IMG/VR virus record: IMGVR_UViG_3300020190_000008
DNA length: 64,000 nt
DNA from: a virus
Strand: one strand, 5' to 3'
The notes beneath the pieces are model-generated. The model was not told where the DNA came from. It saw only the letters and a program-made list of their open reading frames with translations, and did no database searches. Numbering within the stretch: the stretch's first letter is position 1; each line of letters starts with the position of its first letter. The position numbers and the translations under genes were made by a program. Shown here piece by piece: positions 40,639-48,361 of the stretch.

Positions 40639-40659
40639 TTTAGTTTTTGCGTATCATCG

Positions 40660-40688
40660 AACCTCAACATAATTGTTGAGGTTTTTTT
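40660..40688 (+). terminator. Rho-independent terminator
   Basis: AACCTCAACA-TAAT-TGTTGAGGTT perfect 10-bp stem followed by TTTTT. Confidence 0.9.
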
Positions 40689-40743: not shown

Positions 40744-41658
40744 ATGGGTAAAAAAATTAATTTAGATGAAGATTTAGTAATTAAAGAATATTTGTCAGGT
40801 AAAAGTTCTTTAGGGCTGGCAAAAGAATTTAATGTGTCAAAACCAGTAATTCTTGGAATTTTAAAAAAAAATAATGTAACAAAAAAACGAGATAGGTGTA
40901 AATCACTAAAAATTGAAAAGGTTGGTGAAAAGTATATAACAAAAAGGATTTGTCCTAATTGTAAAAAAGAAACTGATGTTGCAACAACACACCCAACAAC
41001 AACTTGTAGAAACTATTTTAAAGCGCTCAATGAAAATTCTGTATGTAAAAAATGTTTGAGTGATGTTATGGTTGGGGAAAGAAATCCATTTTATGGAAAA
41101 AAACATTCAAAAGAGACAAAAGAACAAATTTCTAAAAGTAGAATAGGTAAAGCGACTGGTAAAAATAATTCTATGGCAAATCCAGAACATAGGAAAAAGG
41201 TAGCTGATATGATTAGAAAAAAATGGAAAAATGGCGAAATGGAACACGTTAGAAAAATTTTTTCTGAAACAATCAAAGAAACCAAAAGATTGGGAAAAAT
41301 TAAATCTGTAATAAGATCTAAAACAGAAAAACAAATTTTAAATAAAATAAAAAAATTAGGATATGAAGTAATTCATTCTTTTAAAATTGATACAAAAATT
41401 TGTGATATTTTTTTACCACAATTAAACTTAATAATAGAATACAATGGTGATTATTGGCATTGTAACCCAAACAAATATAGTAAAGAATATTTTCATCAAG
41501 TAAAAGGTATGACCGCTGAACAATTGTGGGAATACGACAAAAACAAGATTGACTTAATAAAAAATAAGGGTTATAATTTAGAAGTGGTTTGGGAATCAGA
41601 TTATAAATCAGATAAAACCATAATAAATAATCTAATTAAAAAATATGACAGAAAATAG
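40744..41658 (+). mobile_element. Free-standing homing endonuclease (HTH + Zn ribbon + NUMOD3 + Vsr/DUF559-like nuclease)
   Basis: CPNC...CKKC, NPFYGKKHSKETKEQIS (NUMOD3), CDIF...IIEYNGDYWH...GYNLEVVWE; TATTTATA at 40723-40730. Confidence 0.85.
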
Positions 41659-42892
41659 CCCCTTGAATGGTCGTGAAAGAATCAGAGTATTGGTTCTCCC
41701 AAGTGACCAGTCGGGGGTTGGCTGAGGTAAATTCCGATCAGTTGACCCCCACGTTAAATTACAAAATATGTATCCAGATGAATTCCATGTGGATATAGAT
41801 TACGAACCAAAAATAAATGATATAAATTACTGGAAAAAATATCAAATTGTTCATTTCCATAGAAGTATTGGTACCGATTACGATAATTGTACAAACATTA
41901 TTAAAATGTTAAGGTCATTGGGTATTATTGTTATTGCAGACATTGATGATTATTGGTTACCAACAAAAGAACACCCAATACATCAATTAATAATTCAAAA
42001 TAAATTACACGAAAAAATTATTGCAAATTTAAAAGTTTCTGATTATGTTATTACAACCACAGAATTATTTGCAAATGAAATTAGAAAGTTCAACAAAAAT
42101 GTTATTGTATTACCAAATGCTGTTGACCCAGCTGACCCGCAATTTAATGAACAAACACCAAAGTCTGATAAAATTAGAATTGGTTGGTTAGGTGGTTCTT
42201 CACACCTACACGATTTACAACTTTTAAATGGTATGGTTTCAAAACTATCAACGATTCAAGACAAGTTACAATATTACGTTTGTGGTTTTGATATTCGTGG
42301 TACTGTAACAGAAATTAACCAACAAACAGGACAAAAAACACAAAGATCAATAAAACCAGAAGAAACTGTTTGGGTTAAATACGAACAAATTTTTACGGAC
42401 AACTATAAAATTATAACACCAAAATATAAAGATTATTTAGATACATTTACAGAAAATGATTATCCTGGTGTTTTAGATGAGAACTATGTAAGGGTTTGGA
42501 CAAGACCAGTTACAAGTTATGCAAAAAACTATTCTAAATTTGATATTTCTTTAGCACCAATTAAAAACCATATTTTTAACAGAATGAAGTCTCAACTTAA
42601 AGTTATTGAAGCTGGTTTTTATAAAAAAGCTTTAATTGCTTCTAATGTTGGTCCATATACTATTGATTTAAAACATGCACTTAAAAATGGACAATTTACA
42701 GATGGAAACGCATTACTTGTAAATGAAAATAATAATCATAGTGATTGGGCAAAAAATATTAAAAAGTTAGTTGAAAACCCAAATATGATTACAGATCTTG
42801 GTGAAAGACTATATGAAACAGTTAAAGACAAATATGATTTAAACCGAGTGACAGAAACAAGAGCACAATTTTACAAATCTTTAATTAAATAA
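41645..42892 (+). CDS. GT-B (GT4-like) glycosyltransferase whose frame is interrupted by an in-frame TGA at codon 27 (41723-41725)
   Basis: ATG 41645 reads MTENSPLNGRERIRVLVLPSDQSGVG*GKFRSVDPHVKLQN in frame with MYPDE (41768); body motifs DIDDYW, IGWLGGSSH, DISLAP, FNRMKSQLKVIEAG. Confidence 0.8.
41713..41750 (+). other. 13-bp RNA stem-loop enclosing the in-frame TGA
   Basis: GGGGGTTGGCTGA (41713-41725) pairs with TCAGTTGACCCCC (41738-41750): 10 Watson-Crick and 3 G-U pairs. Confidence 0.75.
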
Positions 42893-45676: not shown

Positions 45677-46438
45677 ATGATAGATTTTAAAGACGTAACA
45701 TTTATTATACCAATACGGTTTGATAGTGAAGATAGAAAAAGAAATTTTGCTGTTACAATAAATTTTTTAGAAAAAAATTTTGACACAAATATAATTGTTA
45801 TGGAATCTGACAAAACCTCAAACGAAAGTTTTGTAAAAAACATATCAAAAAAAATTCATTACGTTTTTGAAGAGCATGAAAGTAACCTATTTCATAGGAC
45901 AAAAATGTTAAATGACATGACAAAATTGTGTAAAACAAATATTATCGCAAACTATGATGTTGATGTATTATTTACAATAGAACAGTATTTAGCAACAAGA
46001 TTTGCATTAAACACGGGAGTTGATTTTGTTTTTCCATATGGAGGTAAGTTTTATGATATACCCCAAAGATTTTTTAGTTTATTAACTGAAAATAAATTCA
46101 ATGAAATTGATTTGAATGATTGTACACTATTTAATCCTAATTCAATGGGGGGTGCTATATTTTTTAATAAAGACGCTTACACAAAAATTGGACTGGAAAA
46201 TGAAAATTTTATTTCATGGGGACATGAGGATTGGGAAAGAGTTGGTCGTATAGAAAAGATGGGGTACAAAATTTATAGAACACCAGGTGTGTTATATCAT
46301 TTAACACATTATAGAACACACAATAGTTCAGGGTCAAATCCAATGTATAACCATAATGGTAATGAATACAGAAAAGTTATGTCAATGTCTAAAGAACAAT
46401 TGACAGAACATATAAAAACTTGGAATTGGATAAAATAA
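45677..46438 (+). CDS. GT2/GT7-like glycosyltransferase
   Basis: TFIIPIR, NYDVD, GG...ENENFISWGHED. Confidence 0.8.
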   Translation: MIDFKDVTFIIPIRFDSEDRKRNFAVTINFLEKNFDTNIIVMESDKTSNESFVKNISKKIHYVFEEHESNLFHRTKMLNDMTKLCKTNIIANYDVDVLFTIEQYLATRFALNTGVDFVFPYGGKFYDIPQRFFSLLTENKFNEIDLNDCTLFNPNSMGGAIFFNKDAYTKIGLENENFISWGHEDWERVGRIEKMGYKIYRTPGVLYHLTHYRTHNSSGSNPMYNHNGNEYRKVMSMSKEQLTEHIKTWNWIK

Positions 46439-46462
46439 AAAAATAAAAAAAATAAAATTATT

Positions 46463-47092
46463 ATGAGTGGAATTAATTATCAATGGGCAAAAACTTTTAT
46501 TAACAAAGAAACGCCTATAATATTTGACATTGGGGCACATAACTTTAACGACAGTATAAACATAAAGATAAATTTTCCAAGTGCAACGGTTTACGCTTTT
46601 GAAGCATACAAAAACAACTGTGAAAAATTTGGAACTAATGCAATAAATCACAATATTCAGGTTTTTAATTTGGCAATATCTGATAAAGTAGGTAAAACAA
46701 AATTTTACAATTCTGAAACATTGAACGGAATGGAATGGACTTGTTCTGGTTCTATATTACAACCAACAAAAGAAGAAGGTGTAACTATCCATCCAGGGTT
46801 AATATATAATAGAGAAGGAATTGATGTTGAAACAGTTACTATTGAATATTTTTGTGAGGAAAATGACATTGATAATGTGGACTTCATTCACATGGACATA
46901 CAAGGGGCAGAATATTACGCAATAAAAGGTATGGGTGAAAGAATAAAACCAAAAATAATTTATTGCGAAACCTTTGAGTATGATTCATATGAAAATTCAT
47001 TGAGTAGAGATGATTTAGATAACCTTTTGTTTTCACTTGGTTATTCTATAAAAGAAAGATTTGAATACGACACACTATACATTTTAAATTAA
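46463..47092 (+). CDS. FkbM-family methyltransferase
   Basis: FDIGAH, YAFEA, HMDIQGAE. Confidence 0.88.
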   Translation: MSGINYQWAKTFINKETPIIFDIGAHNFNDSINIKINFPSATVYAFEAYKNNCEKFGTNAINHNIQVFNLAISDKVGKTKFYNSETLNGMEWTCSGSILQPTKEEGVTIHPGLIYNREGIDVETVTIEYFCEENDIDNVDFIHMDIQGAEYYAIKGMGERIKPKIIYCETFEYDSYENSLSRDDLDNLLFSLGYSIKERFEYDTLYILN

Positions 47093-47104
47093 AAAAATAT
47101 ATTT

Positions 47105-47728
47105 ATGGAATTTTATTCACAATATGGTCAAGATAAGTTTTTATTTGAAAACTTTTTTAAAGAAAAAAATAATGGGTTTTATTTAGATATAGGAGCACAC
47201 GACGGTATAACTTTAAGTAATACTTACTTTTTTGAAAAATTGGGTTGGGATGGGGTTTGTATAGAACCGATACCAAACGTGTTCAATAAATTAAAAGAAA
47301 ATAGAAACTGTAAATTATTTAATTGTGCTCTATCGAATAAAAAGGGTACTGAAAATTTTCTATTACTTGAGGGTTATACCGAAATGTTGAGTGGTTTATT
47401 AGAAAATTACAATCCAGCACATTTATTAAGAATAGAAAATGAATTAAGAATGATGGGAGGTAATAAAAAAATTATAACAACAGAAACTATAACTTTTGAC
47501 GAATTAAATCTACCAAAAAATATAGATTACATGAGTTTAGATGTTGAAGGTTCAGAAATGAAAATTTTAGAAACTATTGATTTTAATAAAAATCAAATAA
47601 ATTTGATTTCAATCGAAGTAAATCACAATTCAGATTTTATATCTAATTATTTAGAATCGAAAAATTTTGAAAAGATTACTACTTTAGGTTGTGATTACAT
47701 ATACAAAAATAAAAATTTCAACATTTAA
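47105..47728 (+). CDS. FkbM-family methyltransferase
   Basis: YSQYGQD, LDIGAHDG..SNT, CIEP, SLDVEGSE. Confidence 0.9.
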   Translation: MEFYSQYGQDKFLFENFFKEKNNGFYLDIGAHDGITLSNTYFFEKLGWDGVCIEPIPNVFNKLKENRNCKLFNCALSNKKGTENFLLLEGYTEMLSGLLENYNPAHLLRIENELRMMGGNKKIITTETITFDELNLPKNIDYMSLDVEGSEMKILETIDFNKNQINLISIEVNHNSDFISNYLESKNFEKITTLGCDYIYKNKNFNI

Positions 47729-47731
47729 AAA

Positions 47732-48361
47732 ATGAAAAAAAATCTTAAATTACCATTTACAGATTACGACAAAATAGAAAATAACTATAGTCAGGCAGCA
47801 CAAGATTTGTTTGTACTTTCTTGTTTGAAAGGGAAAAAAAATGGTACTTTTTTGGATTTAGGTTGTGCTCACCCAACTCATATAAACAACACCTATTTAC
47901 TTGAAAAAGATTTTGGTTGGGATGGGTTGTCAATTGACATTGACGAAAGTTTAACATCAAAATACCCAAGTCATAGAAATACTAAATCAATAACAAGAGA
48001 TTGTACTTCTTTAGACTTTGAAGAAGTTTTAAGTTATTATAATAGTAATCATATTGATTATTTATCTCTAGATTTAGAGCCAGCAAATGTAACACTAGAA
48101 TGTCTAAAAGCAATTCCATTTGATAAAATAGAATTTTCTGTTATAACTTATGAACATGACAAATATAGGTTTGGAGATCAATACCGAAAAGAATCCAGAA
48201 AAATATTTAAACAAATGGGTTATGAATTAATTTCTTCTGACGTTTGTAGTAATAATTTTCCTTATGAAGATTGGTATTACAACCCAAAATATGTAAATTA
48301 CGAATATATTAAAATTTTTGAAAAAAATAATAGTGAGTGGGATTTAATTATTTACGAATAA
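47732..48361 (+). CDS. FkbM-like methyltransferase
   Basis: YSQAAQD, LDLGCA, NNTYLLE, YLSLDLE, TYEHD, EDWY. Confidence 0.75.
   Translation: MKKNLKLPFTDYDKIENNYSQAAQDLFVLSCLKGKKNGTFLDLGCAHPTHINNTYLLEKDFGWDGLSIDIDESLTSKYPSHRNTKSITRDCTSLDFEEVLSYYNSNHIDYLSLDLEPANVTLECLKAIPFDKIEFSVITYEHDKYRFGDQYRKESRKIFKQMGYELISSDVCSNNFPYEDWYYNPKYVNYEYIKIFEKNNSEWDLIIYE

Follow-up and report, generated by a model that had tools for sequence, protein, structure and literature searches.

Natural cases of translational bypassing are few. In the published accounts drawn on here (PMC10732093; PMC5009743) they comprise gene 60 of phage T4 with its homologues, the terminase g6/7 of Streptomyces phage phiHau3 and the byps of yeast (Magnusiomyces) mitochondria. 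Synthetic 'stop-hops', in which matched codons flank a stop codon and 9 nucleotides (nt) are decoded as one amino acid, have been obtained in E. coli, as have +5 and +6 hops (Weiss et al., 1987, as related by Atkins et al., 2016; PMC5009743). Of natural hopping over an in-frame stop, the relevant passage of Atkins et al. (2016; PMC5009743) states that 'no occurences are known'. We describe a candidate here, in a jumbo-phage DNA of 64,000 nt (IMG/VR virus record IMGVR_UViG_3300020190_000008). This whole stretch is referred to as the window, and positions given without a contig name are positions in it, all features lying on the plus strand. The candidate is an in-frame stop codon between two glycine codons, where a homing-endonuclease gene adjoins a glycosyltransferase (GT) gene. 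We read 40744-41725 as a mobile cassette with a stop-containing spacer that would be crossed by a ribosome hop, restoring the protein of endonuclease-free relatives, and from the comparison of natural alleles we put the probability of this reading at about 0.8.

The closest parallel is the element formed by the endonuclease MobA and gene 60 of T4. As described by Bonocora et al. (2011), cited through Manning & Atkins (bioRxiv 10.1101/2022.08.31.505936), it consists of an endonuclease gene, an overlapping N-terminal extension, a homologous replacement region and the bypass, with the insert ending at the landing codon; the same preprint, as far as it bears on this element, has the endonuclease decaying while the bypass persists (bioRxiv 10.1101/2022.08.31.505936). 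The cassette in the window is built alike, from an endonuclease gene, an extension overlapping it out of frame, a divergent replacement copy and a stop-containing gap, and it too ends at the landing codon. Its gaps are likewise A/U-rich and free of premature landing triplets, the insertions are scattered among near-identical parental genomes, and the endonuclease decays or is lost while the gap stays. The components, however, differ. Whereas MobA is an HNH enzyme, the cassette endonuclease is unrelated to it and combines NUMOD3 with a PD-(D/E)XK/Vsr-like nuclease; the target is a GT4-like glycosyltransferase gene and not a topoisomerase gene (that of the large topoisomerase II subunit); and the cassette replaces the 5' end of its target, whereas MobA splits its gene in two. 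Gene 60 has a hop of 50 nt (20 nt in one clade) and a conserved take-off stem-loop. In the cassette the hop would be of 5-15 nt, a take-off stem-loop is not conserved, and the structure that is probably conserved is a hairpin upstream of take-off, the very element that is not conserved in gene 60 homologues. Judged from the sequences, the cassette shares the architecture of gene 60 and MobA and is not of one homologous family with them.

The remaining natural cases are more distant. The phiHau3 terminase and the Magnusiomyces byps resemble the reading proposed here in that bypassing makes good an insertion of nucleotides and that the A-site codon at take-off is slow to be decoded. They differ in that this codon is a rare or unused sense codon (e.g. 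UUA) and in their genes and hosts, and no link to a homing endonuclease is found for them in the accounts cited (PMC10732093; PMC5009743).

The endonuclease open reading frame (ORF) occupies 40744-41658, ends with TAG and encodes a free-standing enzyme of 304 residues. An ATG at 41645-41647, sitting 14 nt inside the 3' end of this ORF, opens a frame of 26 codons, the last of which is GGC (Gly; 41720-41722), the putative take-off codon. It is followed by TGA (41723-41725), which alone constitutes the coding gap, and by GGT (Gly; 41726-41728), the putative landing codon. The frame begins with the N-terminal extension MTENSPLNGRE (41645-41677), which is supplied by the element and overlaps the endonuclease ORF out of frame in its first 14 nt, and continues with an element-borne replacement copy of the GT 5' end (41678-41722; RIRVLVLPSDQSGVG), in which the take-off codon comes last. 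For the GT gene, the cassette brings three new parts: a start codon, an extension and a replacement copy of the first 15 codons. The downstream ORF (41726-42892), which is predicted to have a GT-B fold resembling the GT4 retaining glycosyltransferases, comprises 388 codons counted from the landing codon, i.e. 387 more after it, and the TAA at 42890-42892. Translated straight through, the frame of ATG 41645 reads MTENSPLNGRERIRVLVLPSDQSGVG, the stop and GKFRSVDPHVKLQN, and then M at 41768. The latter is the start chosen by standard annotation; it lies 14 codons past the landing codon and gives an ORF of 374 codons. The earlier note on this DNA had described the upstream frame as running into the GT ORF, broken only by a TGA between GGC and GGT, and so it reads: TGA 41723-41725 is the sole break between the two. 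A scan across the window for in-frame stops that lie between long open frames, and whose neighbouring codons agree in their first two bases, returned only this site and three plain gene-gene junctions.

We propose the following course of translation. Initiation at ATG 41645 would bring the ribosome to GGC 41720-41722, where it would stall with peptidyl-tRNA-Gly on this codon and UGA in the A site. The tRNA would then leave its codon, the ribosome would slide 6 nt, the same tRNA would re-pair with GGU 41726-41728 and decoding would restart at AAA 41729. The product, of about 413 residues, would read ...SGVG-KFRS... as does the endonuclease-free protein, and its junction would lie in the tryptic peptide VLVLPSDQSGVGK. 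In gene 60 bypassing involves mRNA pairing behind the ribosome, and in gene 60 constructs peptidyl-tRNA-Gly lands on GGA, GGC, GGU and GGG (bioRxiv 10.1101/2024.12.09.627546). By analogy the hairpin upstream of take-off (41665-41712) may act like that pairing, its re-formation behind the ribosome probably favouring forward movement. The spacer, for its part, probably keeps the endonuclease from cutting the genome that carries it, like the gap of T4 MobA/gene 60.

Homologous DNA was collected from IMG/VR, by protein and by pattern, and from JGI/ENA metagenomes by pattern, giving 76 unique alleles broken at the same codon; a blastn search of the locus against GenBank phages gave no match. A protein search returned thousands of close GT homologues, and most of those aligned are 404 residues long, lack the two extra codons and read SGV-GKFRS. 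GVGKFRS without an insert is present in 63 unique gap-free alleles. The earlier note had ascribed this sequence to endonuclease-free relatives, and rightly: when GT genes with and without the endonuclease are aligned, the relatives without it read SGV-GKFRS and lack the extra 6 nt. The same survey disposes of the idea that the stop arose as an error of sequencing or assembly, or that it is a mutation of this genome alone. Single in-frame stops often turn out to be errors, but nothing besides this prior speaks for the idea, and its probability is negligible: dozens of independent assemblies, drawn from different samples, share the identical GGC-TGA-GGT while differing at many synonymous sites nearby.

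The gap itself varies. Hops would measure 6 nt in 53 alleles, 11 nt in 13, 5, 12, 13 or 15 nt in two each and 10 or 14 nt in one each, across gaps of 2-12 nt, and natural gap sequences include TA, TGAATTA, TAACTAAA, TGAATTTAAA and TAACAAAAAACA. The frame changes across the gap in 19 of the 76 alleles, while both ORFs stay open and conserved. One clade alternates gaps such as TAACCAAA (+11) and TAACCAACA (+12), with both flanking frames kept. A stop codon stands directly after take-off in every allele (TGA in 40, TAA in 34 and TAG in 2), and none of the DNA alleles has a sense codon at this position. The take-off codon is GGC or GGT in 75/76, and the landing codon is GGT in 66, GGA in eight and GGC in two. 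The gaps have no G other than the one in TGA, so that the first GG dinucleotide met downstream of take-off is, in all gap types, that of the landing codon.

We favour a hop because the length of the gap varies over all three frame classes while both ORFs stay conserved. A single mechanism fits every allele and would restore the gap-free protein: peptidyl-tRNA-Gly, faced with a stop in the A site, lets go of GGY and pairs again with the GGN that comes next. The locus thus displays two features by which bypassing is recognized: the take-off and landing codons match, the former being followed by a stop, and the gap varies in length without regard to frame while both ORFs are kept. The earlier note had suggested that a short insert linked to the endonuclease is skipped by peptidyl-tRNA-Gly to give ...SGVGKFRS..., and the 76 alleles, spread over all three frame classes, argue for it. 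Its matched GGC/GGU pair holds insofar as Gly codons stand at both sites in 75 of the 76; it does not hold for the eight alleles that land on GGA.

The identity of the GT supports the idea that the codons before the gap matter. The protein has a weak match to Pfam Glyco_trans_1_4 and matches PHROG 7162 at 5.6e-46. An AlphaFold model of a gap-free homologue (predicted local distance difference test score, pLDDT, 85) has its best Foldseek matches in GlgM, MshA, BshA, PglA and PimA, which are GT4-type retaining transferases. In the model, strand beta-1 spans residues 4-9 and helix alpha-1 residues 16-31, with the break site falling between G17 and K18. According to the model, the pre-gap frame, and within it the replacement copy, encodes beta-1 and the Gly loop of the GT-B fold, in agreement with an earlier suggestion that the upstream frame supplies the first beta-strand and Gly loop missing from the 41768 start. 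A GT product of 374 residues started at 41768 would lack the first beta-alpha unit (beta-1 and alpha-1).

A rival reading is that the enzyme is made in such a truncated form, from an internal start such as ATG 41768 with the upstream frame as a remnant, or that the cassette inactivates the GT outright. Standard annotation does call the 374-residue ORF (P0010, P0049 and P0119), and homing elements can be parasitic. Selection, however, tells against a broken gene. The ratio of nonsynonymous to synonymous substitution rates (dN/dS) among gap alleles is 0.18 over the 19 codons before take-off and 0.16 over the 15 codons after landing, with dS >1, which places the pre-gap frame under purifying selection in the cassette lineages. 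For the GT body it is 0.03-0.15 within gap-only clades (0.03-0.04 in the +13 clade) and 0.04-0.07 in gap-free controls, and three alleles that have no endonuclease but retain the same +11 gap give 0.08-0.10 with dS up to 2.1. In none of the 33 unique IMG/VR gap alleles does the downstream ORF fall below 378 codons. Only 24/76 alleles retain the Met at 41768, the other 52 having Leu, Asn, Lys, Gln or Thr, while the 14 codons between the landing codon and this Met are conserved; and the 374-residue product would be the one without beta-1 and alpha-1. A broken gene is thus very unlikely. Because the ORFs are intact, dN/dS is low and Met 41768 is not kept, we conclude from these comparisons that both ORFs are translated and that the protein is needed in gap-bearing phages, including those with frame-shifting gaps.

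We turn to RNA structure. The earlier note had drawn attention to a stem-loop (41713-41750) with GGC-TGA in its 5' arm and GGT opening the loop. The stem is there in the window, where 41713-41725 pairs with 41738-41750 over 13 bp, three of them G-U (-24.1 kcal/mol, z = -3.5; 0/200 shuffles as stable), but as a family signal with compensatory changes it did not stand. It is restricted to the TGA/NGRERIR clade, and in 22 unique +6 alleles its share of paired cells (79%) hardly exceeds that in shuffles (78%). Covariation is weak, one pair alone changing on both sides, and the top three pairs are broken in up to half of the +6 alleles. The folded +12 and +13 representatives have no significant structure at take-off.

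The hairpin upstream of take-off (41665-41712; -16.0 kcal/mol, z = -3.75) fares better. Its core pairs 41668-41675 with 41700-41701 and 41704-41709, and 41678-41684 with 41691-41697, and at its 3' end it stops 10 nt short of the take-off codon. A hairpin ending about 10 nt before take-off is predicted for each of seven clade representatives (hops of 5, 6, 11 and 13 nt; z from -1.4 to -4.1), built from differing sequences in different clades. Given that RNAalifold returned no single consensus structure over all clades, and one fold for all was discarded, this hairpin was tested as a named structure. Over 68 sequences the pairing found in the window accounts for 75.7% of cells; shuffles give 70.7%, and sliding the partner columns gives no more than 48%. 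Changes on both sides affect 64 cells, compared with 26 in shuffles (0/500 shuffles as high). The covariation support is moderate and the counts are partly inflated by relatedness. That the hairpin is real and conserved in position is probable. Its 5' arm is contributed by the N-terminal extension, and this would account for the retention of that extension.

Besides the missing consensus fold, the failure of the 13-bp stem as a conserved signal and the limits on the hairpin's covariation, several observations weigh against a hop. One allele (L170:3441-3512), whose GT is 49% identical to that of the window, reads GTT AGT TAA GGC AAA, the only unmatched pair, with take-off from Ser and landing on Gly; its Ser product may be tolerated, because GVSKFR is present in some gap-free alleles. 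The eight alleles with GGA would require re-pairing from GGY to GGA. All gaps that are not multiples of three are also open in the frame reached by a -1 or +1 shift. Five protein-database calls (P0001, P0012, P0021, P0022 and P0084) have W at the stop position and read GVGWGKFRS, and a further call, P0117, lacks the insert despite having the N-terminal extension and may have lost the gap. Synthetic stop-hops, finally, are a low-level event and lack stimulatory signals, according to the section of the review that treats them (PMC5009743); the GT arrangement differs from them in being natural, conserved and under selection, and in having a hairpin. On the protein calls, P0001 and P0012 are identical to none of the collected loci, and the GVGWGKFRS calls are probably translations with genetic code 4 on AT-rich contigs, because TGG stands at the stop position in 0/76 unique DNA alleles. 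An allele with extension but without gap, as suggested by P0117, was not found among the collected loci or in the IMG/VR pattern scan.

Some of these observations would also suit recoding case by case, with gaps of 3n length crossed by stop readthrough (e.g. of UGA by tRNA-Trp), the others by a -1 or +1 frameshift, and 2-5 extra residues left in the Gly loop. UGA is the leakiest stop codon, gene callers have put W at the stop position in P0001, P0012, P0021 and P0084, and the -1 or +1 frames are open through gaps of 8 and 10 nt. Three separate mechanisms would nevertheless be required at one codon. The stop is UAA in 34 alleles and UAG in 2, and the P-site tRNA-Gly, when shifted by -1 or +1, would meet AGG/UGG or GCU/GUU, with which it pairs poorly. 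The duplicated Gly codon and the G-free gap, always kept, would be left unexplained, and in the model the insert would land at the start of helix alpha-1, beside the invariant G15 and G17. Readthrough fails as a general answer because 19/76 alleles are out of frame, although the window itself is in frame. No suppressor tRNA is present among 67 tRNA genes called by ARAGORN on three related contigs, one gene being unassignable. Overall we consider case-by-case recoding improbable.

The contigs concerned are of related jumbo phages (L264, L265 and L266, one of them 308 kb with terminal repeats) and carry 18-25 tRNA genes each, with a single tRNA-Gly(UCC); for nearly every four-codon box they have just one tRNA, which carries U at position 34. 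At L265:8277-8351 a tRNA with a two-base anticodon (ac) is called. The window has no tRNA gene.

Reassignment of the stop, either through selenocysteine inserted at UGA by way of the hairpin or through TGA read as Trp or Gly (genetic codes 4 or 25), is extremely unlikely. A hairpin does adjoin the UGA, the genome is AT-rich (30% GC) and some gene calls show W. TGA, however, is an ordinary stop here and ends 19 of the 73 frames in the window that are open for at least 100 codons; the genes ending in TGA include some with ATGA overlaps, and with so many of them genome-wide reassignment was dismissed. Both versions fail because alleles with TAA or TAG exist (36/76) and TGA is a normal stop here, and 19/76 alleles are out of frame. 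No Rfam family, the selenocysteine insertion sequence (SECIS) included, matches the region at E up to 1, and for selenocysteine there is no Cys to replace, since gap-free homologues have no residue at the stop position. The alternatives listed in the earlier note, namely selenocysteine, readthrough, a micro-intron or a pseudogene, are each contradicted, and on the allele comparison we regard the selenocysteine, readthrough and pseudogene readings as effectively excluded.

Among the unique IMG/VR gap alleles the endonuclease or a remnant of it lies directly upstream in all but three, which are +11 alleles that lost it. Gap state changes 21 times on a GT tree that leaves out the first 60 residues and three times on the endonuclease tree, and tight sister pairs with and without the gap are separated by branch lengths of 0.004-0.05. 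The gap, as these trees indicate, follows the phylogeny of the endonuclease and not that of the GT. Near-identical GT bodies with and without the cassette are available for DNA comparison (L224 versus L073/L070, L228 versus L080, the window versus L002 and L013 versus L016). In L224/L073 and L228/L080 homology ends near the GT start codon, the endonuclease ATG standing in its place, and restarts precisely at the landing codon or at most 1 nt off. In the window the replacement copy still aligns with L002 through the 6-nt gap, and the right edge is therefore taken from the two former comparisons. By analogy with them, we infer an element of about 982 nt (40744-41725) that runs from the endonuclease gene through the N-terminal extension and the replacement copy to the gap. 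It would stand where endonuclease-free alleles have about 48 nt, from their start codon to Val16. The extension is absent from these alleles, whose starts read MEKIN or MSKIN.

The endonuclease matches Pfam NUMOD3 (1.6e-7), with REase_MTES_1575 below the cut-off, and its C-terminal part is a PD-(D/E)XK/Vsr-like nuclease (EYNGDYWH). Its best PHROG match is 3339, 'homing endonuclease' (1.8e-14); a weaker one is phrog_559, 'HNH endonuclease' (2.4e-11), while Pfam finds no HNH domain at E up to 0.01. The gene is present or absent at one locus in close relatives and moves with flanking target sequence, as expected of a free-standing homing endonuclease. In lying beside its presumed target, carrying flanking sequence and being present or absent in relatives, it resembles the free-standing T4-like enzymes (seg, mob and Vsr-like; intronless homing). 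Immunity to such enzymes is usually ascribed to substitutions in the target site. Unlike free-standing homing endonucleases other than MobA, the cassette appears, by analogy with the T4 element, to owe its immunity to an untranslated insert. Shorter endonucleases of about 253 residues (L066, L153, L158, L175, L180 and L182) nest inside the gap-associated clade, and the GT genes downstream of them have neither gap nor extension; some of these GT alleles bear substitutions at the site (GCGKFRSVEPH, VLVTPSD). This suggests a second route to immunity or a changed target in this clade. Since this clade without a gap is nested in the other, both solutions to immunity would occur in the family.

Some further features of the locus are noted. 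To the left of the element, a terminator-like hairpin of the upstream gene (40659-40684), with an 11-bp stem and a T run after it, has an aligned counterpart in the endonuclease-free L002. A sigma-70-like TTGACT-17-TATAAT (11/12 matches) is found at 41549-41577, within the 3' end of the endonuclease gene and upstream of the GT start; such sites are no commoner in this region than in shuffles. The element-borne GT 5' end (41661-41750) is by eye richer in GC than its neighbourhood in this window of 30% GC and uses GGG and CCC codons, which fits a replacement copy selected for two hairpins, or a foreign origin. GAGG or GGGG near the site resembles a Shine-Dalgarno sequence; any role for it is left as speculation because the genes here have no obvious Shine-Dalgarno sequences. 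At 45677-48361, four tandem ORFs in one frame each begin right after the preceding stop (AAA TAA AAA junctions); these are ordinary adjacent genes and not recoding sites.

We found no publication that describes the endonuclease/GT stop-hop cassette. It appears likely to us that natural minimal programmed hops of 5-15 nt, true in-frame stop-hops included, are widespread and evolved independently of T4 gene 60 in a different homing-endonuclease cassette, their only recognizable requirements being two Gly codons, with a stop and then a G-free spacer between them, and a hairpin behind the ribosome. For annotation the consequence is immediate, in that such GT genes are now miscalled as truncated ORFs or as proteins in which TGA is read as Trp. 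If our reading is true, this would supply the natural case of in-frame stop-hopping that the 2016 review lacks, with 76 alleles that vary in gap length, stop, landing codon and hairpin, and would provide the simplest natural system for dissecting bypassing. It would also mean that the combination of a homing endonuclease with a protective untranslated insert has evolved at least twice.

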